In this document: positions 7,790-64,000 of the stretch, piece by piece
Position numbering within the stretch: the first letter of the stretch is position 1
How the letters are laid out: every line of letters begins with the position of its first letter
Assembly: GCA_965178125.1 (NCBI GenBank)
Contig: OZ237756.1
Span: 930,001-994,000 of the forward strand
Reading direction: 5' to 3'
DNA: 64,000 bases
From: Bilabrum cf. latius
Lineage: Eukaryota
Made by a program: the position numbers and the translations under genes
The notes under the pieces: model-generated
What the model saw: the letters and a program-made list of their open reading frames with translations, nothing else
The model's database searches: none
Told to the model about the DNA's origin: nothing

Positions 7790-9750
7790 TCTCTGCGGCG
7801 CAGTCCGGAGCGTGTCGGAGTGGTTCAACCTGCAGACTGCAACGAGTGCGTCAGCTGAACATAGCAAAGACACCACTTTGGCGTCAGGATCTCTTATGCC
7901 TAGACTTGTTCCTATGGCACCGGCAGGTACTGGCACATTGAGGGCCATTGCTGGGTCAGCCAGGCGCAATGCTGCAGTTGGTGGGCATTGCGGACCGACG
8001 GAAGCGCTGCAACACGCAGAGCCAACCTCAGCAACAGCCCCGAAAAAATCTGTCCGATTCGTGAAAGGCAGTGATGCGAAGTCCGTGACGGTAAAAGGAA
8101 AGAAGAGGAAACGAGATGAGGCCCTGGTCACCTCAACATCAAAGAAAGAATCTAAAAAAAGCAAACGATAGAGCAAAAAAGCAAGAACTAGCAGTTGATG
8201 AGGCATATTGTAACTGGGAATTGAAACAATGTTTATTCATTTTCAAGCTACATGGTTCGCGGTCACAAAGCATCAGGGTATCCATAATCATTTATTTGCG
8301 AGTCAATTATCTTCCATCGTATCTGCACATAAATAATTTTAATGAAGCCCCAGACGTTATTCTTGACAATGACTTTACTTAGTCACTACATCTAATACGA
8401 TTGCACATCTCGTTAATACTACAGATTGAACCACTTCGTACCATGATTTAGGCTGGTGGAACCTTGTCGAGAACTGTTGCCAGAAAAGTTCTGAGGGAGC
8501 CATTTGGTGTAAGCGGTGATCTTCTCATTGAAATTCTGACAACATTTGATTGATATCATCCACGAATTTTAATACATTAATGTTATGGAGACCAACTAAA
8601 TGAAAGCGGCGATCTTCTCCTAACACTTTCGTGACTTCGATTGGTATGGTTGAACAGCATCTTTACCCTTGTAACCGACAAACCTATGAACAAGTACCAT
8701 ACAAAATGCAGAACACAAATATTAATTGTTATAATATATTGTCAAACTTATTCCTTATTATCGTATACACAGTTCATGTTTCTTGTTAAATATCAAGTTG
8801 TTGTTATGATAAAAGCAGCTTAGGTTACTGATGCAGTGATGACACGAGCGGTCTTATGACGGTATCCTTATGCAGTTAAATTACAGACACCAAAGTATAT
8901 CGGTTTATTAGTACCAGTCTTGACTTAATATTGTGACTGCTTAATATATCGGTATAAATAAAATGGAGCGACTTCTTAACAAAGAAGAAGTATTTCCTTC
9001 ACATGATGCTAATGACAGATTGTGGCTTGTATTACAATGAGAACGAACAGCTGTTGCCGACACAATGACTTGCCAATAAATTGCTTTTATAGGTCAGAAG
9101 TTTGCTATGCCAGAGCTGATCGTTACCATTGGGTATTGGTGATACTATCTCTCAGCACAAAGGGTCGAGACATTCTCATGTACATCTCCATGACTTGCTG
9201 ACTCATCTAGGAAAGATTGAGCTCGTCAATATCGAAATTACAATATTTTTGATTTCAAATTCTTCTTTTATGAACAACCAAGAGAATAGACAGTAACATA
9301 GACAAGTATTATAATTTTGATATCTATATATGTTCAACTCACCAGAGCATAACATTCTCTGCGGCGCAGTCCGGAGCGTGTCGGAGTGGTTCAACCTGCA
9401 GACTGCAACGAGTGCGTCAGCTGAACATAGCAAAGACACCACTTTGGCGTCAGGATCTCTTATGCCTTAGGAAAAAATCTGTCCGATTCGTGAAAGGCAG
9501 TGATGCGAAGTCCGTGACGGTAAAAGGAAAGAAGAGGAAACGAGATGAGGCCCTGGTCACCTCAACATCAAAGAAAGAATCTAAAAAAAGCAAACGATAG
9601 AGCAAAAAAGCAAGAACTAGCAGTTGATGAGGCATATTGTAACTGGGAATTGAAACAATGTTTATTCATTTTCAAGCTACATGGTTCGCGGTCACAAAGC
9701 ATCAGGGTATCCATAATCATTTATTTGCGAGTCAATTATCTTCCATCTTA
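7790..9750 (+). repeat. Dispersed direct duplication (about 7790-7900 + 8042-8320 repeated at about 9356-9750) in an AT-rich island
   Basis: Identical text TCTCTGCGGCGCAGTCCGGAG... and GAAAAAATCTGTCCGATTC...CTTCCATC in both places; the second copy lacks about 140 bp of the interior. Confidence 0.9.
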
Positions 9751-10202
9751 TCTGCCGTTAATTTTTATACCATTCTAACAGTCTACATTCTTTGTCCTCC
9801 TCACAAGAGCATAAATGTAGTATTGCATTGGTTTGAGGACATCAATTGAATTTTGGAGGTGTTTAAGGGAGAAGATCGTTACTTTCACTCACTTGCTGTC
9901 CGGGACATGAATGTATGGTAATGTTTGCATGATATCAAACGTATATTGATTGGGCTTCCTAACATATTGGGATTATCAGCTGAATATCATTCTACTTGTT
10001 CCAAAATACAAAATGGTATCAAAATGGAACGCCATGTTTGATTGAATTCTACACAATGACAACACAACGCTGAAATATGACAATGTAATTTGTGGAATTG
10101 AACTTATAAATCGATAATCTAATTGTCCTCGGTGGTTGATTTGGAAAGCGAATTGCAGAACAACCATCAAATAAAATGATTCTTGTGCGTGCATTGCCAC
10201 GT

Positions 10203-13200
10203 TCATAGAACAGACTCTTCGTTTCCAGCTTCGTGGTGACTATGAGATCCTGATATGCCAGCAGATACTGCCTTTGGATCTGAGGCTGCGAATCCTACAT
10301 CACTGGCTCCTGTTGCTGGCGACCCTCTTGATACGCCACTAGCGATGAGTCTGGATTGCTTATCTCCAACGCTGCGATCGTGGCTCGTCCCAGCGCTTGC
10401 AGCCGGAGAGCCATCAGTAGTCTTCGGTTCCTTGGCAGCCTGACTGGGTCCCCTCCGGACATTGCGGGCTCGAGCACTGGCCTCTCGGTCGATCTAGGAC
10501 ATGCGGAGGGGTCGCACCGCACTGCTCCCGGTCCCCCTTGATGTCCCTGAGACCGATTGCTATTGCTACGAACTCCATGTCTCGACCGGCGACTAAAGAC
10601 CCTGTTCACCGGAACCAGTAGCGCCGTGGATAGAGGGTAGGAGCACACCAGCCCCGCTATTGGTTGGCTGTGCTACTCCACTGCCTGCCTTGCCCTCATC
10701 TTCGCCATTGACCTTGTCTCCGTCCCCGTCTGCCCCCACCCCCAATCGGCGGCCGCTCCGGGTCACGATGAACTTGGTTGGGGGTGCCGGGAGCCGAGCG
10801 GAGCCTCCCTATGACGCAACGTGCTGCAGGAACTTGTCCAAGTGGGCAGGATTCTCCCCCTCCTTCCCACCTCCCATGGCTTGCATACTGATCGCCCCTC
10901 TCCCCCGCTCCTCCCCACTGCCCTTCACTCCGCCTCGCGGGTTGCCTCCATCCGGACTCTCAGTTGAGCCGTTCGGGCCGGTTCGCGCCCCCCGTGCAGA
11001 AGCATCCACCGCGATGCCCCTCCCACTAGGGGACGCACCGGAGCGACTCGGAGGGGGGGTGTCCTGCTGCGACCTGCTGCGGCCGTGTCCCTGCTCCTGC
11101 GACCCGCTGCCCCCCTGTGACCGCATCAGCGTGGCCTGCGACGCTACGGGTGCACTGGGATCCGGCTCGTCCTCATCTTCATGCGGATTCGTCCCCTCTC
11201 CCGGGTCCGCCGTGGAGGCATGGCCCTGGCTGCTACCCCCGTGGGAGACCCTTGACTCCGATCCCGTCACGGATGCACCAAGTCCGCCTCCCAAAGCCCC
11301 TGCGCGCAGTCTATCCTCCTCCCCTGGGTGATCTCTCACCGGGGTGGCAGCGCTGTCCACACGACTCCTGGAGCCTGCTAAGCGAGGTCCTGTCGCATCG
11401 TCTACACCCGCCTCCTCCTAATCATGGCCCTGACCCTGACCCTCTCCTGGCGCGCCCTGTTGTTGTACATGTGGCCTGGGCTGAGACGGAGACACGACGT
11501 CCTGAATGCGGGAGGTACCGGTATCTCCCAAGTCCAGGCGGGGCTGGTGCCCCTTTCCCGAGTCCTCGCCCGCCCTCTCCTCATCTGCCTGCTCCTGATG
11601 CTGCTGGAGCCGGGCCTGGCGCACGGCAGCTGCGGCCCCAGATGCATCTCCTGTGCCCTTGCTCGAGATCCGCTTGTTTAGCTGCTTGCGCACCAGCCTG
11701 GCGCGGAACAACTTCTCGATGGCTTTGGCTGCCAGGAAGTTGTCCAGCCCAAAGCCAGTCATCTCGTCCGACGGCCGCCGTCGGAATGCGCGCCTTGCTT
11801 CCCGCCTTAGGCTGGAGGGTTCGTCTGGTGGGACGAAGGCGGGCTTGCCGTCCGCCGCCGATGTGACCACGAACACGCGCAGAGCGAGGGCCTTGACCAC
11901 GTGCTCGAAGTGCACATGCTTTCCCCTCAGGAGGGGGATGCGCAAGGAGGCAGCCCGCATCCTGAGCTCAGAGTCGGTGGCTTTGTAGTTGAGACCGAAC
12001 CCCATAGGCTCCGGCAGCCGCTGCAGCAGCTCCAGTAGCTAGTCAATCTTGATGCTCTCAGTGGCGTGTGGATCGTACTTCATCCACATGTGCAGGAACT
12101 GCTTTAGATGTCCCTCACCGAGGCGCATGCTGTCCTACTTGCCGCTCTCCTCGAAGCCCTCGATCACCACCGCCACGAACAGGTTCAGGAACACAAATGT
12201 GATCAGCAGAGTGAAACTCAGGAAGTAGGCATAGGCAGCTGCAATGGAACCACAACCGTCCACCGGCTCGCAACCCGGCTCTGCACCACTGTACTTGCAC
12301 ATGTTCAGCTTCTCATCGTACGGGATGTCCGCTAGATCTCTGCAACCATCCGGCTGCGCCCCTGCCGAGTACATGATGGCGTTCCATCCCTCTCCTGTGC
12401 TGGCCCGCATGAGGGTTAGCATGGCGCGGAAGAAGGTCTGGAAATTGGCCTGCTCCGTCAATGCCCCCTGCAGCTGCACGGTGGCGAACAGCTGCACCCC
12501 CATCACCGCGTAGATGAAGAACAGCAGGAACAGCAGGCCACCAATATTACCGAGGGATGGCAGGATCCAGTACACGGCACCAGCCAGCTGCCGGATCTGC
12601 TTGGCTCGCTTGACCAGCCGCACCACACGAGCGATGCGGAAGGTACGCACAACCGTGGCAACGCCACCCACGTCCACCCCGATGGCCGCCTGCTGCAGTG
12701 CGATGCCTAAGAGAGTGCCAACCACCACGGTGAAATCGAACGAATTCCACGCCCCGTCCGCCCCGCAGAAGTAGTCTCCCGCCCCGAGCCCAACGAGCTT
12801 GATGGCAGCCTCGACCGTGAAGATGCCCGCGAACACGTAGTTTATCACATCCAGCGCCACTGCGTACTGATGCGGCTGCCCAAAGAAAGCGATGGCCATG
12901 AAGAGGGCGTTCAGCACAATGCAGACAAGGATACCAGCCTCGAAATTCTCGCTCTCAGCGATCGACCGGCAAGTGCGGACACAGGCATACTCCGACGGCT
13001 CCGGCGCTTTTATGGGCCGGATGCGGATCATTTCCCTGCGGGTGCGAACCCACTCCCTCTGCTCAGGCGTCATGAAGATGCCACCCGCATCTCCGAGTCT
13101 CTCTTTTTCCCGGTTGAAGTTCTCGATGATGATTCCCACGAAGAGGTTGGTCACGAAGAAGGCACCTGCGAGGGTCGGGTGGGAGTGAAGCAAGGAAGCA

Positions 13201-16200
13201 GAAATGGTTGAGCAGGCAAGTTGTTCCACACAAGTGCTGTCATGCATTGATCTAAGCGTATGCGGCAGGCAGGTCGTCTCACCGATCACCATGAAGCCGA
13301 TGAAGAAGAAGACCCACAACGGGGTAGCATCCCGCACCGGCTGCATCTCCACTCCTGTGGCGTCCACGCCTGCGTACATGATCTCCAGCCAGCCCTCCGT
13401 GGTGGCCATCTGGAACAGAGTCACCATGCCTTCCAGTACGTTGTCGAAGCCACTGTCCACGGGCAGGTCCCATTCGAAATCGAGCCATTCGCACACGTGC
13501 ATGCTACGGGGAGCCTCTGCCGCTCCCGAAGGGGGCATGGCCAGGCAGCACGAGCCGTTGGTCATGAGCAGCGATGCAGCACCCGCAGCACTGTCCACTG
13601 CTCCCCGCGTTGCATTCACACCGCCGGGGGGTGGGGCTCGCCACGCCGGGTATAGCAGAGCAGCTGCATCAGCACCGCGCTCGCCCGCCCTGTATGCGTC
13701 CAGCCGGCCGGGGATGCGCCCAAGGAACGCGCTCGCTGGAGCTGCCCATTCAAGCAACCCAAGACCTGATCCACCCTCCCCCGTCCCATCGCCTGCACTC
13801 AGGCTCTCCAACACTGACAGCTGGTCCTGCACAGATAGCCTAGGCCCCTGCAGCATCAGCTCCTGCGCAGCATTAGCAGTGCTACCACCGTCATCACGAG
13901 CCTCCAACACATCCCTGTAGGGCACGTACACTGCACCAGCTTCAAGTAGCAAAGCCTACTCGGCAGCATCAACAGCATCTAGCACGGCCTGCAGCGGGTC
14001 GACAGCAGCAGTGGTGCGACCCTCGGCGCTCCCGCCCCACGCCAATCGGGCCTCTTCCCTTCCTTCCGCGGTACTTGCATTGAAACTTTGCAGCCCTGCG
14101 TTGAAGTCGAACTTCAGCAATGCGTCCAAATTAGCGTCTACTGCGGCAGACGGCGCGGCCCCACCAAGACCCTGCCGCACTGCCAGAGCAGCCGAAAGAT
14201 CCTCCACAGAACCTTGCGCGCCCGCCGAAACCATCAGCGAGGCATGAATTGCTGCGATAGCCGCGGGGCTAAAGAGCTCGGCAAATGTGCCCGGGGTCTG
14301 GACGATGCCCTGCAGCACAGGGGACGCTTCCTCGAAGGCCTCACCCCCGCACGAGTGGAAGGAGCCCTTGAAGTAAGACGTTCCCAGGATGGAGAAGATC
14401 AAGAAAAACAGCACGCACACGAACAACACGTTGAGGATGGATCGCATCGAGGTCAGGAGCGTCTACACTACCAACTTGAGGCCAGGGTTCCTGGAGATAA
14501 ACCTGAGGGGCCGGAAGGCGCGCAGTGCCCTCAGCGAGCGAAGACTCTTCAGTGCCTGTCCCTGCCCCTGCCCAGCGGAAAGTGACAAGATGGAGACCAC
14601 CACGATGAACGCATCCAACACGTTCCACCACGAGCGGAAGTACGCATTCCTGTGGAGTACCACCCCGAGCACAATAATCTTCAGGGCCATTTCTACGGTG
14701 AATAGGCAGGTCAGTACGATGTCAGTCACTCGGAGAGCTTGCGCGGGCCAGCCATTGGGGTCCATGAATGGCGAATCCACCGCCAGCAGGATGCTGCTGA
14801 CTGCAATGAGCACCATCACCGTGCGGTCGAACCAAGGGTGCTGCACCACCTCGTCTAGAGAGGCCCGCACGCAGTTCTAGGGGGCAAGCAGACCCATGCT
14901 GTGTCCGTGCAGGCTGATGCGGCGATTGACCATCCGCGAGCTGCGCCCTGAGAAAGCTGACTGCGAGGGCATGGATAGGGCCGTGTCCACGGAGGAGCGG
15001 GCCCCCTTGATCATCGACTCGCGGGACTTGGGTGTGCTTGAGGCACCTGCGACCGCCGGACCTGCCGCCACCGGAGGGGGGCCGTATACGCCGCTGCTCC
15101 GCGCTTTACCTGCCGCGTGACCCTTGGAGTCAACTGCCCTGGCCAGCACTGGGGGGCCGCGGGAGGCAGCCGCCGAAGATGAGCCCCCCTATTCTGCCGG
15201 CTGTGTAGCTGCCCCTTCTTCCTGCTCCAGAATGTCCGGGGAGCCATGCCCTCCAGCCTAGGCATCGTTCCTGACCTTTGCTTGCAGGAAGGGGTGTCTG
15301 GCGAGCCGCCCAGCTGCCTCGCTAACGCTGCTCAGAACAGGACCACCTGGGGGGCTTCCCGTGCCGGTTTCGGGATTTGACACTGCTCGGCGATTCGGTT
15401 CTGCCTATTCCTATTTGGCCTAGCCACCTTGGGTATGCGGAGGAGGCTTCGCGGCGGCTACTGTCGCACTCATCGCACCAGACTAGCCTCTTCTGTTTGC
15501 CTCTGCCTCCCCTCCACCCAGCGAGGAAGGCGTGGGGACGGCAGAGGCATCACCTCGGCGACGGGACCCGCTGGCGTGCCCCTGTTCGGGCCTTCGCCGA
15601 GGGCTCTGTTCGCCCGACTCGCTACCCTCCTTGGCCGACTTGGTCGACCCCCCTATGGAAGCGAACAGCTTGCCAAGCGCCTGCACCGAATGCCTCAGGG
15701 GGGCCATGGGAGACAGCATGTCTTCCTCCTCCTCCGGGGTAAGGTGGTGGTACTTCTTTGCATCCCCCTCGTGCTCTGCTGCAATCATGGCCTGCACCTG
15801 CTGCTCGGCGCTGGTATCCTCACCAGCATCTTGCTTGCTGTCCTGAACCCCCGCGCCATCTTGAGATCGTGCTCGTATTCCAGCTGGACTAGCACCTGCT
15901 TGCTTCCCCCCTTCCCGCAGCACAGGGAGGGGCTCTGGTGCAACCTGGTTCGATGCGATACCGGAGCTGGGCCGAGCTTGCGAGACAGGCAACGCCACCA
16001 CACCCACTGGGTTGCTCATAGGGACAGGCGCCACCCGACTGCTGGGGCTGACAGGCTCCCCGGTGAGCTGATCCACGTCATCGAACGAGCCCAGCAGGAT
16101 GGCCAAAAAGAGGTTCAGCACGATGAAGTCGCCCATGATGATGAGAGCCAAGAAGTACACGGCAGCCGCCCACGAGGTGCCTCGGATGCAGTCGTACATG

Positions 16201-19200
16201 ACCGTGTTCCAGTTCTCCCCCGTCAGCACCTGGAAGACAGTCACGAAAGCCCATAAGAGAGTGTCGAAGTGTGACCGAGGGCGTTCGAAAGGGTCAGGGC
16301 AAGCCGCGGGGTTCTCGTCGAAGACCTCCGGGGCAACCTCGTCAGCGGGGCGACCCGTCTCGGGGTCGAAGCACAGTTCGTTGGCGAAGAGCTGCATCCC
16401 GACGAGTGCGAATATGAACATGAAGAGCAGCAGCAGTACCGCAAAGTTGGCCACATCCCTCAAAGTGGCCATGATGGTGTGCAGTAGGATGCGCAGGCTC
16501 TTCCACTACCGGGCAAGTGCGAAAACGCGGAACAGCCGGAATGTACGGAGGGCGGAGACCGCTGACTGCCTGGCCCCGGGTCCGTCGTCATGCTCCGCCG
16601 GGGTGAGGAATCCCGGCGGCACGACGATTACCTCGACGAGCGAGGCCACCACGATGACCGCGTCGAAGAGGTTGAATGCATCCTGCGCGTACAGCCAGGG
16701 GCCCAGCCCGATGAGCTTGAGCACCATCTCCACGGCGAATGAAAGTGTAAGCGCGAAGTTGACGATCTCCAGCTACCTGGCCAGGTCTTGGTTCATCGGG
16801 TAGTGGTCGATGGCCAGCACCACCGTGTTGAGCAGGATCAGCAGCATGATGCCCAGGTGGAAGAACGGGTGGCTTACCAGCATGAAGCAGCACAGTCGCC
16901 ACTGGGGAATACCCAGCTTTTCTGCCCGCAACCGCAGCAAAAACTCCGTGCTATACCCAGACATGCGGCGTTTCTTACCATGCCCAGCCACGATGTGCTG
17001 GGTAACTTTTTGCATCAGCTTGCGGCCGGACCCTCCACCCTCCTCCCCATTCTCTCCTTCAGTACCACGCTCACCCCCCTTGTGGCCACTCTTACCGGAT
17101 TTCTCTCGCTCGTCCTACTCGCTGGTGGAGCCTTTCGACTGGCGAGCGACGTCAGTCCCGGACGATTCCGCCGCGGCCCTTCCTGCATCGATAGCACCGC
17201 CTCCCGCGTCTCCGTGAGCGCCGATTCCCTTTTCATCCCCACTCTCGGCGGATATCTGCTTCACTGCGCCAATGATGCCATGCTCCCGGTTGAGGGCCAG
17301 CAAGGACCTCTTTGATTTACGGTTCTGCATCGGGGTGACTGGGCCACTGGGCTTGGCCCCTGCGCCCGCCCCGGCTCCGACTGGTTGCTGCCCCTGGTGG
17401 AAGACCATCTGCGATCTTCTCCTCTCCTGCTCCCGCCCCAGGTCACGCAGTCTCTGCGTCTCTGCGGCGGCCTCCTTCTTCTTCTTCTGCTCGGCATCCT
17501 TGACGGCCTCTCTCTCTTTCTCTGCAGCCTCCTCCTGGCCCTTGTTGTACTCGTCCCAAATGACCGCAAGGGTCAGCTGGAGCAGGAAGAAACTCCCAAA
17601 GATGACCAGAAACACGAAGTAGACCGCCGCCACCACCCCATTGTACCCGTCCATGATCTGGTACATGATATCCACCCACCCCTCCAGCGTTATACTCTGG
17701 AAGATCGTGACGAAGGCCTTGCCAATGTGGTCGAAGGTGGTCAGTCCGAAGTTGAGAGAGGACAGGTACGTCGCGGATCGTTGCACGAAGGAGCCCGCAA
17801 ACCGCTCGTTACCACTAGCATCGTAGTTGCTCCCGCACCACCGGCCCGCAGGACACTTGTAATCCCCAAGCTCCCACCCGGGCAGCGAGCAGATCCTCTC
17901 CAGTTCAGGGTCCACGGGCCAGAAACAGTCCCGGGCCCTGCGCCAGGGTGACGTCAGCTGCGTCCAGGAATCGTCGTTCACTGGTTCCCCCGGGAGACAC
18001 CTCTCTAGCACGTTGGTATTCAGCATGGCCGAAGCAGAGAACACGCGGGGATCCTCCTCGAGGCCGCCTGCTGCCACCGGGCTGTCCCTGGCTGCAGCAC
18101 CAATTGTTAGCACTGTGCCAGTAGGATCCAAGTCCTCTGCATCCAGCATGAAAGCGGCCATGCACTCCTCCCCAACCGGGTTAACCAGGCAAGGGGCTGG
18201 CACCCCGCCGGGCGGCCGCACCCGGACTGGGTCCGATGTCAGCCTGCACCTTGCGTGCTACACGCCGGCCCACAGCTGCACACCCAAGATGCCAAATATC
18301 ATAAACACGAAGCTCAGCAGCATCACCACTGACAGCAGCCCCGGAATGGACTTGAGCAGCGACTGCACCAGGAGCTTCATGCCCGGCACCGCGTTGAGCG
18401 AGCGCAGCGGCCGGAGCACTCGGATGACGCGGAAAGCGCTGACGTTTGTCACACCAGGGAGATTGGACAGGAGCGCTGTGGCTACTACGACGAAATCCAG
18501 TCTGTGCTTGGCGCAGACGGGGCAAATGAGTGGAAGCACACGTTAAGCAGTAGCGATGTAGCGATTCGGGTGCAGCCTATCAGTGGCGGGTGGGGCAGTC
18601 GAGCGATGATGACGGACTCACACATTCCACGGGTCTGCCAAGTACGACCCTTTGTCCCAGACGAACCCCATGGCGACAATCTTGAGCACCATTTCCGCAG
18701 TAAATATCCCGGTGAAGACCGGTTCTGACCGCTCGACAAGCAGGTTGCGCCAGCTGCCCGACGTGTCTAGGAAACCGTCTGAGTCCACGTTCCCGTAATC
18801 TGACAGGGCCAGTACGATACTATTCAACACGATCAGTGTACTGCGATACATTCGATTCGCAATTCTCGTTTTGCAACTCAGTGCTTCCAGCACACGGCAA
18901 GCGCGAGGCGCAACGGACGGATAACTCACAGGATAAATGCGTCGAACAACCAGTGCTGTGTAAGCCACACCGCAGATTCTCGCACTACGTTCCCAGGATA
19001 CAAACAAAATAGTGATACCTCCGAGAAACGAAACGACTTGCCGTGAACATGAAAGTTGGGAACAGAGGTGGCGGAAAGTCTCCCGTCTCGAGCGGCGCGC
19101 TGAGCATCCTTCGCTACTTTTGCCAGCGATGGTGACCCCAAGCTACCGAATGATACCTAAGAGCCACCTGATGATTCCTAGCTCGTCATGTTCGAGGCGC

Positions 19201-53488: not shown

Positions 53489-55435
53489 TTACGCGAGCTC
53501 GCACTTGCCACTGATGAGCAGCTGCAGCAGCTACTTCTTGTTCACCTTTCCCATAGCGTTGCGGGGAATTTCTTCGACCCAAACAACTGCTCGGGGGCTC
53601 TTGTACGGAGCCATCTGCCCCAGGGCCCACTCCTGCACCTCCTGGGCGCTTGCATTTGTGCTAACTGGGGCCCGCACCGCTAGGGCAAGCACCGTCTCAC
53701 CCATGCCTCTAGCCTCCAGTGCGGCGATGGCATGCCCACACGGTTCCAGCCCGCTACTGTCCCACTTGTCTCGCAGAGCCTATCGCACAGCTGCTGCATC
53801 TTCGTCTGGAATCCCGAGCACTGACACATCGCCGACAGCCTCGTGGTCCAGCATAACCGTCTCGGCCTCGAGCGCCGACACCTTGTACCCTCCTACCTTA
53901 ATGATGTCCGCCGATGCACGCCCCAAGATGCGCCAGCGACCCTTCAAATCCCGCGCCACCATATCACCGGTCTGGAACCACCTTGGGACCGCTTGCACCT
54001 GCTCCTGCGACATGGCGCGCTGTGCCGCCGGGCCATTGACACCCTCATAGGCAACCGTGCCAGCGGGCAGCTGCGACCCCTTCTTGAAGGCCTCTGCAGT
54101 CGCCTCTTCCCTGCGCCAATAGTGATCAAACACGCTGGGCCCAGCAAGCCACAGTTCCCCGGTCACTCCCCCCTCTTCCCCATCCCCATGCTGCACATCC
54201 TGCGGTCTTGCCTCGCGGTCAGGAGCCACTGCCGCCATCACCCCCGGCAGCGGCCAGCCCACCGACCCGAGCACCCTGCCTTCCTCGGGCTCGAATGGAT
54301 TGGACAGCGCCATGCCCACCTCCGTCATGCCATACCTCTCTAGCAGGCGGCCGCCCGTGCGCTGAGTCCACGCCCGGCCAAGGGCTGCTGGCAGTGGCGC
54401 TGATCCACTGAAGCACTACACTGCTGGGCTACGACCCCGGACATGCTCTTCTTTCAGCACATTCCCCGTCTACTGCAAGAGCTTGTGGTACATGGCTGGC
54501 ACTGCCATGAAGCGCGTGGGGGTGCACTGCACTGCAGGTGCATTGTCCTCCTGCCCTGTCAAAGCGCTCCACACCGTGTCCGGAGAGAACTTGCCCCTGC
54601 GCATGTCCACAGTGGCCCCCGCCCACATGGCGCACTGCAATCCGTTGATCAGTCCGTGCACGTGGTGCAAGGGCAGTGTGTGCAGCACGATGTCGCTGGG
54701 TTGCCACTGCCAGGCGTCCACCAGGGTGGAGGTCATGGCATCCAGGGAGGCATGTGTATGTACGACGCCCTTTGGTCGACTGGTTGTGCCAGAGGTGAAT
54801 ATCATGAGTGCCCCGCTGCCAGATTGCGCAACATGATCCGGCAAATCGTCATGTAGCGGGCGGGCGCTTACATGTGCAGCGTGCTGCTTATTCCACTGCC
54901 GCACTGACACATGCTTCGCATGCAGGTTTCGGGCAAGATCCTTGGCTTCATTGTAGCTGTTGCTAAGATCAAGAATGATTCCACTGCCCGAAGAAATTGA
55001 GGTCGTGGATGCAACTGTGCTCACCGGCACTGGAAGATTCAGATCCCAAACTCGGCTTGCAAGGGAACTGCTGCAGATAACCATAGCAGGATCTGATGTT
55101 GTTATCGCATACCCCAACTCAGATTGTGGGTGGGAGTCACACAGTGGGACTACCATAGCGCCAGCTTGCCAAACTGCCCACTGCGCTGCAACGAAGTCAT
55201 ACCCAGTTGCCAAAACACATACTCTTGGTGTCGCCTGCGCTGACATTTGTTCACTCTTCTTGATTCTAAGGTACTAGCTGATCTCTACGGCAAGCTGCGC
55301 CGAATCAGCTCCCAAGTGCTAGTAAGTAAAGGCATGGGTACGATCCAAATCAAGAATAGCTATTCTCTCCGGTGAATGCACCTGAGACAGTTTAAAGACA
55401 GTAGACATAGGTCTTGCTGGTGATTTGCAGAACAT
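53489..55435 (-). CDS. ACSF3: AMP-dependent acyl-CoA synthetase, malonyl-CoA synthetase (ACSF3)-like
   Basis: FTSGTTSRPKGV, LPLHHVHGL, SGSAPLP, LERYGMTEVGMALSNP, WFQTGD, GRASADIIKVGGYKVSALE, IPRNAMGKVNKK; several in-frame TAGs; ends TAA 53489. Confidence 0.9.
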
Positions 55436-55865
55436 ACCATGTCGTTCTGCAGAATATCTAGTCAGGTGAGAGCATCGTCCGAACCGCCCGCTGCGATGCA
55501 AACAGCAACTCACAATTGCATGTATATTCGAGTACAGCAGAAATCAGTCACGTCTACCTATAACCTTACTCTACTCACGCTTTAGAGATAGCTCGAAGCA
55601 TACAAAATTTGTGTACGTGTAGCTGACGCACCTGCATAAATGTAGATCTAGGAGGCACCATGAGTGGTGGCTCCGGATCCGAACGCACACGGACCTACCT
55701 AACTTGATAGATCGACGTGCAATACTAATTTGGTACTGTAAAGTCATGCTATTGCTTAACACAATCTCATATATCGTGCCCACAAGGCGCCAGCGGCACC
55801 CTCCAAACCTCATCCGTGGCGCTCTCGTCTAGCCTCCGGTACATGTTCGTGAGGCCAAGGATAAT

Positions 55866-56745
55866 GGGTTTAGGGTTAGGGTTAGGGTTAGGGTTAGGGT
55901 TAGGGTTAGGGTTAGGGTTAGGGTTAGGGTTAGGGTTAGGGTTAGGGTTAGGGTTAGGGTTAGGGTTAGGGTTAGGGTTAGGGTTAGGGTTAGGGTTAGG
56001 GTTAGGGTTAGGGTTAGGGTTAGGGTTAGGGTTAGGGTTAGGGTTAGGGTTAGGGTTAGGGTTAGGGTTAGGGTTAGGGTTAGGGTTAGGGTTAGGGTTA
56101 GGGTTAGGGTTAGGGTTAGGGTTAGGGTTAGGGTTAGGGTTAGGGTTAGGGTTAGGGTTAGGGTTAGGGTTAGGGTTAGGGTTAGGGTTAGGGTTAGGGT
56201 TAGGGTTAGGGTTAGGGTTAGGGTTAGGGTTAGGGTTAGGGTTAGGGTTAGGGTTAGGGTTAGGGTTAGGGTTAGGGTTAGGGTTAGGGTTAGGGTTAGG
56301 GTTAGGGTTAGGGTTAGGGTTAGGGTTAGGGTTAGGGTTAGGGTTAGGGTTAGGGTTAGGGTTAGGGTTAGGGTTAGGGTTAGGGTTAGGGTTAGGGTTA
56401 GGGTTAGGGTTAGGGTTAGGGTTAGGGTTAGGGTTAGGGTTAGGGTTAGGGTTAGGGTTAGGGTTAGGGTTAGGGTTAGGGTTAGGGTTAGGGTTAGGGT
56501 TAGGGTTAGGGTTAGGGTTAGGGTTAGGGTTAGGGTTAGGGTTAGGGTTAGGGTTAGGGTTAGGGTTAGGGTTAGGGTTAGGGTTAGGGTTAGGGTTAGG
56601 GTTAGGGTTAGGGTTAGGGTTAGGGTTAGGGTTAGGGTTAGGGTTAGGGTTAGGGTTAGGGTTAGGGTTAGGGTTAGGGTTAGGGTTAGGGTTAGGGTTA
56701 GGGTTAGGGTTAGGGTTAGGGTTAGGGTTAGGGTTAGGGTTAGGG
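55866..56745 (+). repeat. telomeric (TTAGGG)n tract 1 (~880 bp)
   Basis: perfect TTAGGG array, G-strand pointing toward the window end. Confidence 0.99.
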
Positions 56746-57880
56746 TATCTAATATAAAGTCAGGGACAGGGTCGGGGAAAAAATATTTTCATCTTCAATA
56801 TTTGTCGAAAAACGACGTGCTACGATCTCGGTAACTACAGGTGATATGAAGACCGTTCAAACTGCATCGGGACGGCCTGGGGGCACAACATGGGCCAAAT
56901 GTTCCCCAGGTTCCGTTCTGGCCGCGTGGCGCCGATATGGGTGTATGAAGAATTTCACACCGAAAAACGACGTGCTACGATCTCGGCAACTACAGGTGAT
57001 ATGAAGACCGTTCAAACTGCATCGGGACGGCCTGGGGGCACAACATGGGCCAAATGTTCCCCAGGTTCCGTTCTGGCCGCGCGGCGCCGATATGGGTGTA
57101 TGAAGAATTTCACACCGAAAAACGACGTGCTACGATCTCGGCAACTACAGGTGATATGAAGACCGTTCAAACTGCATCGGGACGGCCTGGGGGCACAACA
57201 TGGGCCAAATGTTCCCCAGGTTCCGTTCTGGCCGCGCGGCGCCGATATGGGTGTATGAAGAATTTCACACCGAAAAACGACGTGCTACGATCTCGGCAAC
57301 TACAGGTGATATGAAGACCGTTCAAACTGCATCGGGACGGCCTGGGGGCACAACATGGGCCAAATGTTCCCCAGGTTCCGTTCTGGCCGCGCGGCGCCGA
57401 TATGGGTGTATGAAGAATTTCACACCGAAAAACGACGTGCTACGATCTCGGCAACTACAGGTGATATGAAGACCGTTCAAACTGCATCGGGACGGCCTGG
57501 GGGCACAACATGGGCCAAATGTTCCCCAGGTTCCGTTCTGGCCGCGCGGCGCCGATATGGGTGTATGAAGAATTTCACACCGAAAAACGACGTGCTACGA
57601 TCTCGGCAACTACAGGTGATATGAAGACCGTTCAAACTGCATCGGGACGGCCTGGGGGCACAACATGGGCCAAATGTTCCCCAGGTTCCGTTCTGGCCGC
57701 GCGGCGCCGATATGGGTGTATGAAGAATTTCACACCGAAAAACGACGTGCTACGATCTCGGCAACTACAGGTGATATGAAGACCGTTCAAACTGCATCGG
57801 GACGGCCTGGGAGCACAACATGGGCCAAATGTTCCCCAGGTTCCGTTCTGGCCGCGCGGCGCCGATATGGGTGTATGAAG
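56746..57880 (+). repeat. conserved leader + 155-bp satellite subfamily A (~7 copies)
   Basis: Leader TATCTAATATAAAGTCAGGGACAGGGTCGGGG...; monomer AAAACGACGTGCTACGATCTCGGCAACTACAGG... with 155-bp period. Confidence 0.95.
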
Positions 57881-58133
57881 ATTTGCATGTTTATTCAATA
57901 TGCATGGTTTATCTGTCAATTGTAGAATGGGTATGGTGTACATGACAGTTGTATTTGCTGTGTGGATTGCTTTGATCTAAGGTATTAACTGGTTGACACG
58001 TCAAGACTCAACAGAATGCCTCCCGGCTCCTAATGCTGCGTCCGAATGGGTCAATGGCAGACACTTTGGCAAACTCCTCTCACAAGCTGGCCCAGCTGCC
58101 ACTGACCTCAATTGCCGTCCCCCTGCCTGCCTC

Positions 58134-58280
58134 TCACTCGTCACCGAAAGCTGCTAGGAGCGCTTCCACAGCGTCGACGTCTGCCGCATTGAGATCTCCT
58201 TTCGCCGTCTTCTCGAGGGCCGTCATCAGGTTTGCGAACATTTCCAACTCGCGGTCCCTCTCTTCAATTGTTGCCTCGGT
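58134..58280 (-). pseudogene. truncated 3' fragment of a coding sequence abutting telomere repeats
   Basis: Reads TEATIEERDRELEMFANLMTALEKTAKGDLNAADVDAVEALLAAFGDE*; its 5' part is replaced by (TTAGGG)n at 58281. Confidence 0.45.
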
Positions 58281-58675
58281 TTAGGTTAGGGTTAGGGTTA
58301 GGGTTAGGGTTAGGGTTAGGGTTAGGGTTAGGGTTAGGGTTAGGGTTAGGGTTAGGGTTAGGGTTAGGGTTAGGGTTAGGGTTAGGGTTAGGGTTAGGGT
58401 TAGGGTTAGGGTTAGGGTTAGGGTTAGGGTTAGGGTTAGGGTTAGGGTTAGGGTTAGGGTTAGGGTTAGGGTTAGGGTTAGGGTTAGGGTTAGGGTTAGG
58501 GTTAGGGTTAGGGTTAGGGTTAGGGTTAGGGTTAGGGTTAGGGTTAGGGTTAGGGTTAGGGTTAGGGTTAGGGTTAGGGTTAGGGTTAGGGTTAGGGTTA
58601 GGGTTAGGGTTAGGGTTAGGGTTAGGGTTAGGGTTAGGGTTAGGGTTAGGGTTAGGGTTAGGGTTAGGGTTAGGG
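58281..58675 (+). repeat. telomeric (TTAGGG)n tract 2
   Basis: perfect array. Confidence 0.99.
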
Positions 58676-59984
58676 TATCTAATATAAAGTCAGGGACAGG
58701 GTCGGGGAAAAAAAAATTTCATCTTCACTTTTTGTCGAAAAAATGCGCGCGACGATCTCGGCAACCAGATGAGATATGAGGACCGTTCAAACTGCATCGG
58801 GACGGCCTGGGGGTACAATGTTGGGCAAATGTTCCCCAGGTTCCGTTTATACCGCGCGGCGACAATATGGCTGGACGAAGATTGTCATGCAGAAAAAATG
58901 CGCGCGACGATCTCGGCAACCAGATGAGATATGAAGACCGTTCAAACTGCATCGGGACGGCCTGGGGGTACAATGTGGGGCAAATGTTCCCCAGGTTCCG
59001 TTTTGACCGCGCGGCGACAATATGGCTGGACAAAGATTGTCATGCAGAAAAAATGCGCGCGACGATCTCGGCAACCAGATGAGATATGAAGACCGTTCAA
59101 ACTGCATCGGGACGGCCTGGGACCACAACAGGGGGCAAATGTTCCCCAGGTTCCGTTTTGACCGCGCGGCGACAATATGGCTGGACGAAGATTGTCATGC
59201 AGAAAAAATGCGCGCGACGATCTCGGCAACCAGATGAGATATGAAGACCGTTCAAACTGCATCGGGACGGCCTGGGGGTACAATGTGGGGCAAATGTTCC
59301 CCAGGTTCCGTTTTGACCGCGCGGCGACAATATGGCTGGACGAAGATTGTCATGCAGAAAAAATGCGCGCGACGATCTCGGCAACCAGATGAGATATGAA
59401 GACCGTTCAAACTGCATCGGGACGGCCTGGGGGTACAATGTGGGGCAAATGTTCCCCAGGTTCCGTTTTGACCGCGCGGCGACAATATGGCTGGACGAAG
59501 ATTGTCATGCAGAAAAAATGCGCGCGACGATCTCGGCAACCAGATGAGATATGAAGACCGTTCAAACTGCATCGGGACGGCCTGGGGGTACAATGTGGGG
59601 CAAATGTTCCCCAGGTTCCGTTTTGACCGCGCGGCGACAATATGGCTGGACGAAGATTGTCATGCAGAAAAAATGCGCGCGACGATCTCGGCAACCAGAT
59701 GAGATATGAAGACCGTTCAAACTGCATCGGGACGGCCTGGGGGTACAATGTGGGGCAAATGTTCCCCAGGTTCCGTTTTGACCGCGCGGCGACAATATGG
59801 CTGGACGAAGATTGTCATGCAGAAAAAATGCGCGCGACGATCTCGGCAACCAGATGAGATATGAAGACCGTTCAAACTGCATCGGGACGGCCTGGGGGTA
59901 CAATGTGGGGCAAATGTTCCCCAGGTTCCGTTTTGACCGCGCGGCGACAATATGGCTGGACGAAGATTGTCATGCAGAAAAAAT
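58676..59984 (+). repeat. conserved leader + 155-bp satellite subfamily B (~8 copies)
   Basis: Same leader; monomer AAAAATGCGCGCGACGATCTCGGCAACCAGATG... with 155-bp period. Confidence 0.95.
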
Positions 59985-60088
59985 GGGTAGGGTTAGGGTT
60001 AGGGTTAGGGTTAGGGTTAGGGTTAGGGTTAGGGTTAGGGTTAGGGTTAGGGTTAGGGTTAGGGTTAGGGTTAGGGTTAGGGTTAGGG
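59985..60088 (+). repeat. telomeric (TTAGGG)n tract 3
   Basis: perfect array of about 17 units. Confidence 0.99.
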
Positions 60089-63000
60089 TATCTAATATAA
60101 AGTCAGGGACAGGGTCGGGGAAAAAATATTTTCATCTTCACTTTTTGTCGAAAAAATACAACATAGGATCTCGGCAACCACAGGAGATATGAAGACCGTT
60201 GAAACGGCATTAGGACCGCCTAGGGGCACAACATGGGGCAAATGCTCCCCAGGTTCCGTTTTTGTCGCGCGGCGCCGATATGGATCGATGAAGATTTACA
60301 TGCTGCAAAAATACAACATAGGATCTCGGCAACCACAGGAGATATGAAGACCGTTGAAACGGCATTAGGACCGCCTAGGGGCACAACATGGGGCAAATGT
60401 TCCCCAGGTTCCGTTTTTGTCGCGCGGCGCCGATATGGATCGATGAAGATTTACATGCTGCAAAAATACAACATAGGATCTCGGCAACCACAGGAGATAT
60501 GAAGACCGTTGAAACGGCATTAGGACCGCCTAGGGGCACAACATGGGGCAAATGTTCCCCAGGTTCCGTTTTTGTCGCGCGGTGCCGATATGGATCGATG
60601 AAGATTTACATGCTGCAAAAATACAACATAGGATTTCGGCAACCACAGGAGATATGAAGACCGTTGAAACGGCATTAGGACCGCCTAGGGGCACAACATG
60701 GGGCAAATGTTCCCCAGGTTCCGTTTTTGTCGCGCGGTGCCGATATGGATCGATGAAGATTTACATGCTGCAAAAATACAACATAGGATCTCGGCAACCA
60801 CAGGAGATATGAAGACCGTTGAAACGGCATTAGGACCGCCTGGGGGCACAACATGGGGCAAATGTTCCCCAGGTTCCGTTTTTGTCGCGCGGCGCCGATA
60901 TGGATCGATGAAGATTTACATGCTGCAAAAATACAACATAGGATCTCGGCAACCACAGGAGATATGAAGACCGTTGAAACGGCATTAGGACCGCCTAGGG
61001 GCACAACATGGGGCAAATGTTCCCCAGGTTCCGTTTTTGTCGCGCGGCGCCGATATGGATCGATGAAGATTTACATGCTGCAAGGGGGGGGGGTTAAGGG
61101 TTAGGGTTAGGGTTAGGGTTAGGGTTAGGGTTAGGGTTAGGGTTAGGGTTAGGGTTAGGGTTAGGGTTAGGGTTAGGGTTAGGGTTAGGGTTAGGGTTAG
61201 GGTTAGGGTTAGGGTTAGGGTTAGGGTTAGGGTTAGGGTTAGGGTTAGGGTTAGGGTTAGGGTTAGGGTTAGGGTTAGGGTTAGGGTTAGGGTTAGGGTT
61301 AGGGTTAGGGTTAGGGTTAGGGTTAGGGTTAGGGTTAGGGTTAGGGTTAGGGTTAGGGTTAGGGTTAGGGTTAGGGTTAGGGTTAGGGTTAGGGTATCTA
61401 ATATAAAGTCAGGGACAGGGTCGGGGAAAAAATATTTTCATCTTCACTTTTTGTCGAAAAAATACAACATAGGATCTCGGCAACCACAGGAGATATGAAG
61501 ACCGTTGAAACGGCATTAGGACCGCCTAGGGGCACAACATGGGGCAAATGCTCCCCAGGTTCCGTTTTTGTCGCGCGGCGCCGATATGGATCGATGAAGA
61601 TTTACATGCTGCAAAAATACAACATAGGATCTCGGCAACCACAGGAGATATGAAGACCGTTGAAACGGCATTAGGACCGCCTAGGGGCACAACATGGGGC
61701 AAATGTTCCCCAGGTTCCGTTTTTGTCGCGCGGCGCCGATATGGATCGATGAAGATTTACATGCTGCAAAAATACAACATAGGATCTCGGCAACCACAGG
61801 AGATATGAAGACCGTTGAAACGGCATTAGGACCGCCTAGGGGCACAACATGGGGCAAATGTTCCCCAGGTTCCGTTTTTGTCGCGCGGTGCCGATATGGA
61901 TCGATGAAGATTTACATGCTGCAAAAATACAACATAGGATTTCGGCAACCACAGGAGATATGAAGACCGTTGAAACGGCATTAGGACCGCCTAGGGGCAC
62001 AACATGGGGCAAATGTTCCCCAGGTTCCGTTTTTGTCGCGCGGTGCCGATATGGATCGATGAAGATTTACATGCTGCAAAAATACAACATAGGATCTCGG
62101 CAACCACAGGAGATATGAAGACCGTTGAAACGGCATTAGGACCGCCTGGGGGCACAACATGGGGCAAATGTTCCCCAGGTTCCGTTTTTGTCGCGCGGCG
62201 CCGATATGGATCGATGAAGATTTACATGCTGCAAAAATACAACATAGGATCTCGGCAACCACAGGAGATATGAAGACCGTTGAAACGGCATTAGGACCGC
62301 CTAGGGGCACAACATGGGGCAAATGTTCCCCAGGTTCCGTTTTTGTCGCGCGGCGCCGATATGGATCGATGAAGATTTACATGCTGCAAGGGGGGGGGGT
62401 TAAGGGTTAGGGTTAGGGTTAGGGTTAGGGTTAGGGTTAGGGTTAGGGTTAGGGTTAGGGTTAGGGTTAGGGTTAGGGTTAGGGTTAGGGTTAGGGTTAG
62501 GGTTAGGGTTAGGGTTAGGGTTAGGGTTAGGGTTAGGGTTAGGGTTAGGGTTAGGGTTAGGGTTAGGGTTAGGGTTAGGGTTAGGGTTAGGGTTAGGGTT
62601 AGGGTTAGGGTTAGGGTTAGGGTTAGGGTTAGGGTTAGGGTTAGGGTTAGGGTTAGGGTTAGGGTTAGGGTTAGGGTTAGGGTTAGGGTTAGGGTTAGGG
62701 TATCTAATATAAAGTCAGGGACAGGGTCGGGGAAAAAATATTTTCATCTTCACTTTTTGTCGAAAAAATACAACATAGGATCTCGGCAACCACAGGAGAT
62801 ATGAAGACCGTTGAAACGGCATTAGGACCGCCTAGGGGCACAACATGGGGCAAATGCTCCCCAGGTTCCGTTTTTGTCGCGCGGCGCCGATATGGATCGA
62901 TGAAGATTTACATGCTGCAAAAATACAACATAGGATCTCGGCAACCACAGGAGATATGAAGACCGTTGAAACGGCATTAGGACCGCCTAGGGGCACAACA

Positions 63001-63904
63001 TGGGGCAAATGTTCCCCAGGTTCCGTTTTTGTCGCGCGGCGCCGATATGGATCGATGAAGATTTACATGCTGCAAAAATACAACATAGGATCTCGGCAAC
63101 CACAGGAGATATGAAGACCGTTGAAACGGCATTAGGACCGCCTAGGGGCACAACATGGGGCAAATGTTCCCCAGGTTCCGTTTTTGTCGCGCGGTGCCGA
63201 TATGGATCGATGAAGATTTACATGCTGCAAAAATACAACATAGGATTTCGGCAACCACAGGAGATATGAAGACCGTTGAAACGGCATTAGGACCGCCTAG
63301 GGGCACAACATGGGGCAAATGTTCCCCAGGTTCCGTTTTTGTCGCGCGGTGCCGATATGGATCGATGAAGATTTACATGCTGCAAAAATACAACATAGGA
63401 TCTCGGCAACCACAGGAGATATGAAGACCGTTGAAACGGCATTAGGACCGCCTGGGGGCACAACATGGGGCAAATGTTCCCCAGGTTCCGTTTTTGTCGC
63501 GCGGCGCCGATATGGATCGATGAAGATTTACATGCTGCAAAAATACAACATAGGATCTCGGCAACCACAGGAGATATGAAGACCGTTGAAACGGCATTAG
63601 GACCGCCTAGGGGCACAACATGGGGCAAATGTTCCCCAGGTTCCGTTTTTGTCGCGCGGCGCCGATATGGATCGATGAAGATTTACATGCTGCAAGGGGG
63701 GGGGGTTAAGGGTTAGGGTTAGGGTTAGGGTTAGGGTTAGGGTTAGGGTTAGGGTTAGGGTTAGGGTTAGGGTTAGGGTTAGGGTTAGGGTTAGGGTTAG
63801 GGTTAGGGTTAGGGTTAGGGTTAGGGTTAGGGTTAGGGTTAGGGTTAGGGTTAGGGTTAGGGTTAGGGTTAGGGTTAGGGTTAGGGTTAGGGTTAGGGTT
63901 AGGG
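60089..63904 (+). repeat. three copies of a 1306-bp higher-order unit: leader + ~6 x 155-bp subfamily C + G10 + (TTAGGG)n
   Basis: Leaders at 60089, 61395 and 62701 (spacing 1306). The third unit is 1204 bp (17 fewer telomere repeats). The same monomer variants occur at the same positions in each copy. Confidence 0.95.
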
Positions 63905-64000
63905 TATCTAATATAAAGTCAGGGACAGGGTCGGGGAAAAAATATTTTCATCTTCAATATTTGTCGAAAAACGACGTGCTACGATCTCGGCAACTACAGG
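63905..64000 (+). repeat. start of another leader + subfamily A unit (runs off the window)
   Basis: Leader followed by AAAACGACGTGCTACGATCTCGG as at 56746. Confidence 0.9.

Follow-up and report, generated by a model that had tools for sequence, protein, structure and literature searches.

How does a chromosome end come to carry several telomeres in series, each separated from the next by a satellite-bearing cassette? The question is raised by a 64,000-nucleotide stretch of DNA (contig OZ237756.1 of the Bilabrum cf. latius assembly GCA_965178125.1, positions 930,001 to 994,000 of the forward strand), which we analyzed as a whole and refer to as the window. Its last 8.1 kb consist of (TTAGGG)n tracts strictly alternating with repeat cassettes, six of each. 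Having compared the junctions, the internal organization of the cassettes and related contigs from public sequencing runs, we lean toward a reading in which a telomere-specific retroelement, with the minus strand of the window as its sense strand, left the cassettes as 5'-truncated copies.

Telomere tracts and cassettes at the chromosome end

The G-rich strand runs 5' to 3' toward the right end of the window, so the chromosome end lies on the right side. The six tracts (146, 65, 16, 49, 49 and 32 TTAGGG repeats) are perfect and uninterrupted, with 99-100% matches reported by Tandem Repeats Finder and 0 mutations across the 357 telomere repeats. The cassettes follow from left to right in the order A, B, C, C, C, A, all in a single orientation. 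The features of the region are the following:

55870..56745, plus strand: telomere tract 1, 146 perfect repeats, adjoining unique genic DNA; variant first repeat TTTAGGG at 55866-55869
56746..58285, minus strand: cassette A1, the longest, with the terminus, about 7 units (56806-57881), a 3' untranslated region (UTR; 57882-58133) and the tail of an open reading frame (ORF); 5' truncation at about 58277-58283
56746..56777, minus strand: fixed 32-nt terminus, read as the 3' end of the element; also at 58676, 60089, 61395, 62701 and 63905
58134..58280, minus strand: ORF tail, the last 48 codons and the stop (58136-58134), its 5' side cut by telomere repeats
58286..58675, plus strand: telomere tract 2, 65 perfect repeats, preceded by an irregular GGTTTAGG
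58676..59992, minus strand: cassette B, 3' terminus and about 8 units of 155 bp, cut inside a unit; at the junction ...AAAAAATG is followed by GGTAGGG
59993..60088, plus strand: telomere tract 3, 16 perfect repeats
60089..61100, minus strand: cassette C1, 3' terminus and about 6 units, cut inside a unit, then ten G and TTAAGGG
61101..61394, plus strand: telomere tract 4, 49 perfect repeats
61395..62406, minus strand: cassette C2, which with tract 5 repeats 60089-61394 exactly
62407..62700, plus strand: telomere tract 5, 49 perfect repeats, equal in length to tract 4
62701..63712, minus strand: cassette C3, body identical to that of C2
63713..63904, plus strand: telomere tract 6, 32 perfect repeats
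63905..64000, minus strand: cassette A2, cut by the end of the window; 1 of 96 bases differs from A1

Ordinary genes extend up to 55273 and include a multi-domain ion channel, an ARM-RING protein, an SDE2-SPRY protein, a flavin adenine dinucleotide (FAD) oxidase and an adenosine monophosphate (AMP)-binding enzyme. About 600 bp of unique DNA separate the last of these genes (55273) from tract 1. We detected no subtelomeric repeat before the first tract and no cassette-like sequence in the other 55.8 kb of the window. With genes and unique DNA standing directly before tract 1, the whole stack lies on the distal side of an apparently normal telomere start. Since none of the telomere repeats is mutated and A1 and A2 differ at only 1 of 96 bases, the stack of cassettes and tracts appears to be young. 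For assembly practice, the locus means that several "telomeres" can stand in series at one end and that the first tract (55870) should not be taken for the end of the chromosome.

A fixed terminus and variable distal ends

All six tracts stop in one hexamer register, with ...TTAGGG followed at once by TATCTAAT. The 32-nt terminus that begins there (TATCTAATATAAAG...) was found directly after a complete TTAGGG at six sites with 0 mismatches, compared with 0 matches in 100 shuffles. Each terminus is followed by an array with a period of 155 bp, within which matches reach 99%. Types A, B and C show pairwise identities of 79-84%, and the terminus is the longest block identical across the three, the longest invariant block inside the units being about 22 nt. 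Calculated naively, the 32/32 terminus identities have a P of about 1e-3 per pair, but this overstates their significance, as each unit mixes perfectly conserved with hypervariable blocks. Differences between types are concentrated in one block of about 15 nt per unit, with other blocks (up to 22 nt) being invariant. On the minus strand, the terminus holds three telomere-like C-rich hexamers (TTTCCC, CGACCC and TGTCCC), which end 17 nt before the junction and are the same in all three types.

The hypervariable block of about 15 nt lies directly upstream of GATCTCGGCAAC in every unit from 56806 to 63695, where it is uniform per array and differs between the three types. Loose ends of the run contigs introduced below add three or more versions of it. 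As far as its sequence can tell, the block behaves like a subfamily tag.

The right ends of the cassettes vary. A stops after a non-repeat stretch of about 400 bp, and B and C stop inside a unit. At the junctions themselves, B ends in ...AAAAAATG before GGTAGGG, C ends in ...GCTGCAA before ten G and TTAAGGG, and A ends at about 58277-58283 before TTTAGG. The first repeat is irregular at every distal end, as it is at the native junction (TTTAGGG, 55866), and by this likeness each distal end looks like a former chromosome terminus healed by telomerase. The ten-G run at the C junction may be an untemplated addition at the end of the complementary DNA (cDNA) or a homopolymer error. The ends of B and C fall within about 5 nt of the same unit phase (59985-59992 for B; 61078-61100, also 62384-62406 and 63690-63712, for C), a position that might mark a transcription start or processing site present in every unit.

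A preliminary description of the region had reported a leader at 56746, 58676, 60089, 61395, 62701 and 63905, followed by 155-bp arrays in the order A, B, C, C, C, A and in one orientation, with a left junction precise at ...TTAGGG and right junctions that vary. These observations were borne out: the 32-nt word is present at all six positions with 0 mismatches, the order and orientation of the arrays are as described, the register is the same in 6 of 6 junctions and the distal ends differ. The count of six cassettes also stands, but they amount to four independent items, as the C copies are exact duplicates (1306 bp, 0 mismatches). Likewise, the composition given for a cassette, leader plus satellite, applies to B and C, but A also holds the unique sequence 57882-58285 with the end of a minus-strand ORF.

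The ORF tail and evidence for longer copies

The part of cassette A that lies beyond the satellite (57882-58285) is unique sequence in which an ORF of the minus strand ends. The G+C (GC) content of this ORF tail by codon position (0.69/0.38/0.65) follows the same pattern as in five genes of the window, and the UTR of about 250 bp past the stop is flat (0.44/0.49/0.50). The ORF tail and the fixed end together make the minus strand the sense strand and place the 3' end proximally in all six cassettes (4 independent), which is the single-orientation layout expected of a telomeric retrotransposon.

We then compared Logan contigs from the public runs X1, X4 and X2 over positions 57727-58285. The three runs come from one study and are coded as the same organism; that study may be the source of the assembly itself. 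Contigs of X4 and X2 extend past 58277 by 255 and 94 letters, respectively, of non-telomeric sequence, so copies longer than A1 exist. By manual reading, the frame stays open for 10 further codons in the 30 letters visible past 58277. In one X4 contig, 18 nt are inserted in frame just ahead of the last two codons and the stop, and the sequence past the stop is divergent. In other contigs, positions 57810 and 57987 are joined directly to TTAGGG-type repeats. A fixed 3' junction is accompanied by variable 5' truncation, with three different distal ends observed in the window and a further two in the run contigs. Summed word depth in X1 was 913-951 over the A-type UTR and up to 13039 over the ORF tail, and over bins of the 155-bp unit it reached 2e5 to 1e6. 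Such depths indicate that parts of the cassette are repeated in the organism. The cassettes thus appear to belong to a repeated, diversified family with a coding part, of which the copies in the window are cut variably on the 5' side and constant at the other end.

A further run, X5, which bears another organism code, contained 0.53 of the sampled words of 54000-58285; it yielded no contig on 57727-58285, a blank that is possibly false. If the X5 match is real, a relative would share the subtelomere or the satellite without the A-type UTR and ORF tail. The 15 public runs listed for the region include none recorded as RNA, a result with no bearing on expression.

An exact duplication of the C unit

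Positions 60089-61394 and 61395-62700 are identical over 1306 bp (0 mismatches), including the truncation point, the G run and the 49-repeat tract. The third C body is identical too, and its tract has 32 repeats. Identity that extends through the tract argues against independent insertion and fits either recombination, through break-induced replication (BIR), a displacement loop (D-loop) or a rolling circle, or an assembly error. We infer that, after insertion, the C unit with its 49 repeats was probably copied twice more by recombination, for which a D-loop with BIR, a rolling circle and unequal exchange are candidate pathways. Identical interstitial tracts in arrays of MoTeR, a telomere-targeted retrotransposon of the rice blast fungus, were read in the same manner, as products of D-loop/BIR or rolling-circle copying and not of serial transposition (PMC7367193).

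A model of telomere-primed reverse transcription

The fixed register, variable distal ends, single orientation and inward ORF would together form the signature of reverse transcription primed from a TTAGGG 3' end. The RNA of the element, ending in ...CUUUAUAUUAGAUA and probably continuing into read-through CCCUAA repeats, would pair with the TTAGGG 3' end of the chromosome, the priming end being either the natural G-overhang or a nick in a tract. A reverse transcriptase (RT), which could be encoded by the ORF of the element itself (here visible in its last 48 codons) or be a different enzyme, would copy this RNA from its 3' end and extend the G strand. The new strand would begin as the complement of the RNA 3' end, and priming of this kind would always leave a centromere-side junction in which TTAGGG is directly followed by TATCTAAT. 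Copying would halt at the RNA 5' end or earlier, giving the variable telomere-side ends. Telomerase would then re-cap the new end, with an irregular repeat first, and the next addition would land on the new telomere. Repeated cycles would build a head-to-tail stack with telomere tracts in between.

This model retains part of two proposals made in the preliminary description. The anatomy fits the telomere-targeted element suggested there, on the opposite strand (its "leader" being the fixed 3' end), but an ORF end is present in one copy or more, and the cassettes therefore look like truncated copies of a coding element rather than of a purely non-autonomous one. The suggested telomere extension by recombination or a rolling circle suits the C-C-C block, with its exact 1306-bp duplication and 49-repeat tract, and fits that block only.

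A further extension of the model is speculative, and we regard it as unlikely. The 155-bp unit would be the 3' UTR of an RNA repeatedly reverse-transcribed onto the chromosome ends of a telomerase-positive alga or protist, with telomerase and a second RT alternating, the second possibly being telomerase using the element RNA. The host seems to be an alga or protist, although this is a weak lead: a fragment of the ion channel is closest to protein clusters in which the few members of known origin are chiefly haptophytes, followed by oomycetes and chlorophytes. If the extension is true, the most abundant satellite of the organism is not an ordinary subtelomeric satellite, its hypervariable blocks of about 15 nt mark competing template lineages, and the chromosome ends of the organism are naturally intermediate between ends kept by telomerase only and those of Drosophila, kept by retrotransposons only, within a lineage from which no such case is known.

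Telomeric retroelements that coexist with telomerase have been recorded in only a few lineages, namely Magnaporthe, Fusarium, rotifers, some fungi, a diatom, silkworm, Giardia and Chlorella. They serve as models for the relation between telomerase and retrotransposons and for the instability of chromosome ends. A clean case in another microbial eukaryote would be a useful data point and a tractable system, combining long perfect interstitial tracts, a satellite 3' UTR and amplification after insertion.

Searches for related sequences

Neither a Rep protein or helicase, nor an integrase, nor an RT was seen in the window. The search for an RT covered 100 of the 195 window frames of at least 110 codons left of 55800 and found none. 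A word search with the ORF tail (48 aa) among proteins of 85-2000 aa produced 101 candidates, 0 of them at E<=0.01. HMMER searches of the tail against 1.84 billion representatives returned two matches (E 1.5e-6 and 2.2e-4), which we judged spurious: they consist of 6-8 short stretches and concern unrelated Pfam proteins. In metagenome contigs, the ORF-tail peptide pattern matched 600 stretches, 0 of which were confirmed by tblastn, and no copy of the conserved 22-nt satellite core turned up there. Viral contigs, queried with the 32-nt terminus, returned 0 matches. We found no description of the element, or of a 155-bp satellite interleaved with telomere repeats, in open-access papers and preprints. 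The available portions of papers on Auxenochlorella and pelagophytes mention TTAGGG telomeres and nothing resembling the interleaved structure.

Points against the retroelement and alternative explanations

Several observations weigh against a retroelement. No RT, endonuclease or other Pfam domain was seen, with only 48 ORF codons in the window, and these codons have no convincing protein match. The open frame of 48 + 10 codons is weak evidence by itself, its length being common in DNA of 60% GC, and the in-frame insertion has the support of one contig and manual reading. No poly(A) tail is present. A search of Rfam with both strands of 55500-64000 gave 0 matches at E<=1, hammerhead ribozymes included, and the CUGANGA...GAAA core is absent from the leader and the units, its sole match being in the ORF tail, although minimal dimeric hammerheads might escape both of these tests. 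Covariation lends no support to a consensus fold of the three unit types (2 of 35 pairs compensatory, covariation term +1.45), and the 98-nt 3' ends fold no better than shuffled sequences (z 0.14, 0.19 and -0.50). The unit phase shared by the B and C ends is expected in about 6% of cases under random truncation. Independent insertions cannot account for the three C copies. Lastly, terminal erosion, healing and break-induced copying from end to end can equally produce every feature apart from the conserved terminus and the orientation of the ORF.

That last route deserves to be taken seriously, and we hold it to be possible though somewhat unlikely as a full account. The cassettes, with their leader, satellite and gene part, would then be ordinary subtelomeric DNA forming a recombinational module, comparable to yeast Y' elements or to alternative lengthening of telomeres (ALT): ends wear back by differing amounts and are healed by telomerase, a telomeric 3' end then invades an interstitial tract, on the sister chromatid or another end, and copies the adjoining block by BIR or, on an excised circle, by rolling-circle replication, so that the proximal junction is inherited. 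The exact duplication of the C unit with its 49-repeat tract is what was stated as the D-loop/BIR or rolling-circle signature in the MoTeR arrays (PMC7367193). The 357 telomere repeats without mutation suggest very recent copying, no RT was found in the window frames searched or through the protein libraries, and the 155-bp unit is very abundant in the runs, as subtelomeric satellites often are. Recombination nevertheless requires a first junction of TTAGGG and leader whose origin it does not explain. It also does not account for terminal 32 nt that are identical in subfamilies differing by about 20% elsewhere, for the ten-G run at the C junction, or for a fixed end that is always on the centromere side with the ORF facing inward, as in every described telomeric retroelement. 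Recombination and the retroelement mechanism are not mutually exclusive.

The order A-B-C-C-C-A and the three C copies might not exist on one molecule if the assembler had chained reads from several ends through their TTAGGG tracts or had over-expanded a shorter repeat. In favor of this, the C units and two of the tracts are identical to the base, the structure stands at a contig end built of repeats, and the supporting contigs are k-mer contigs, none of those listed spanning all 559 bases compared. We consider such an artefact quite improbable, because chaining requires reads that already run from TTAGGG into the leader, which makes at least one interstitial junction real. Contigs of the three runs moreover show satellite or UTR sequence passing into telomere repeats at additional positions, the tracts (96-876 bp) are short next to a typical long read, and the uniform orientation and exact register recur at four independent junctions. 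Telomerase, for its part, might pass its template boundary or switch to an RNA with a CCCUAA-like end, with no need for an enzyme of the element. A junction that always falls at the same hexamer position would agree with this, as would the telomere-like C-rich hexamers near the inferred 3' end of the RNA and the absence of an RT from the visible parts. A telomerase RNA would not, however, contain an array of six to eight 155-nt units together with the end of a protein-coding frame, nor would it occur as three or more subfamilies, and to our knowledge there is no evidence for telomerase copying kilobase RNAs; read-through of this kind is very unlikely.

Other features of the window

Away from the chromosome end, a 2.2-kb island at 8000-10250 has a GC content of 33-44% in surroundings of about 60%. 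It is flanked by direct repeats (7787-7901/9353-9467 and 8042-8326/9471-9755) totaling about 400 bp, 99-100% identical and 1.4-1.6 kb apart, and contains an imperfect inverted repeat of 81 nt. Either the remains of a transposon or an inserted segment whose flank was duplicated could explain the island. A 126-bp tandem repeat at 2081-2607 (3.2 copies, 99% matches) lies inside the armadillo-RING frame (1561-2889, minus strand) and is a very recent unit duplication within the gene. Five Ion_trans frames on the minus strand between 12138 and 19142 (12138-13955, 13959-14462, 15486-16505, 17118-18257 and 18621-19142) look like exons of one multi-domain voltage-gated cation channel gene, located 37-44 kb from the telomere.

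Comparison with known systems

Tandem subtelomeric repeats with coding sequence and short tracts in between, amplified by recombination when telomeres are compromised, are known from the Y' elements of Saccharomyces cerevisiae and from ALT-type telomeres. Copies of Y' have both ends fixed. These systems provide a model for the exact C-C-C duplication. In contrast to Y', only the centromere-side end is fixed here, and no helicase or other domain is visible. Amplification of a whole unit together with its tract, as in those systems, holds for C-C-C (1306 bp) but not among A, B and C, whose distal ends differ.

The telomere-specific retrotransposons of insects offer another comparison. HeT-A, TART and TAHRE in Drosophila and SART and TRAS in Bombyx have poly(A) tails and gag/pol ORFs and belong to the Jockey and R1 clades, and the Drosophila elements are found at ends without telomerase repeats. 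In the locus described here, neither a poly(A) tail nor gag/pol ORFs were seen. The arrays are similar in being of one orientation, head-to-tail and variably truncated at the 5' side, and SART and TRAS are, in addition, found inside repeats made by telomerase (PMC10088271).

Closer parallels exist in fungi. The RT of the fungal CRE-clade elements MoTeR and FoTeR carries a restriction-enzyme-like endonuclease. MoTeR1 and MoTeR2 of Magnaporthe/Pyricularia oryzae and the FoTeRs of Fusarium oxysporum are telomere-targeted retrotransposons without long terminal repeats (non-LTR) of this clade (PMC10088271). MoTeR arrays are head-to-tail, with the 5' ends lying closest to the chromosome terminus, TTAGGG tracts between copies and de novo telomeres on truncated ones (PMC7367193), and FoTeRs have asymmetric junctions (PMC12857005). 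The cassettes resemble both in their head-to-tail arrangement within TTAGGG repeats, their fixed 3' junction and variable 5' side, their truncations capped de novo, the existence of short copies without an RT and the tandem repeats internal to the element (PMC7367193; PMC12857005). They differ in the position of telomere-like motifs: MoTeR has the variant repeats TTCGGG and TTTGGG at its 5' end, whereas the hexamers lie at the 3' end here, and the junctions of the copies in the window, all of them 5'-truncated, show single irregular repeats and not TTCGGG(TTTGGG)n. The interstitial tracts are also longer (16-146 repeats, compared with half a repeat to little over 20 in MoTeR). Furthermore, unlike in MoTeR, an array of a 155-bp satellite, extremely abundant in the reads, makes up the 3' UTR, and the gene content of the host is, as a weak lead, not fungal.

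Penelope-like elements that lack an endonuclease present the other close parallel. They comprise Athena in bdelloid rotifers and Coprina in fungi, a diatom and a spike moss, and carry short reverse-complement telomere-like (NNNCCC)n motifs near the 3' end (PMC8557442; PMC13159263). The route proposed for them proceeds by pairing with the G-overhang, reverse transcription and re-capping by telomerase (PMC8557442; PMC13159263), and with Coprina present in the diatom Phaeodactylum, elements of this kind are known from algae (PMC13159263). The location of the cassettes at a chromosome end with telomere repeats on both sides is shared with Athena and Coprina (PMC8557442; PMC13159263). The hexamers TTTCCC, CGACCC and TGTCCC near the minus-strand 3' end correspond to the (NNNCCC)n motif, although here, unlike in Athena and Coprina, 17 non-telomeric bases separate them from the junction. 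Nearly all Penelope-like elements, including those without an endonuclease, are reported to have a hammerhead, and none was found here; nor is an RT (in Penelope-like elements of a type with a DKN motif) or thumb domain visible in the window, and the 155-bp arrays are unlike the usual pseudo-LTR. No membership in either family can be claimed for the array in the window, which appears to work like a MoTeR array or an array of the Coprina/Athena type.

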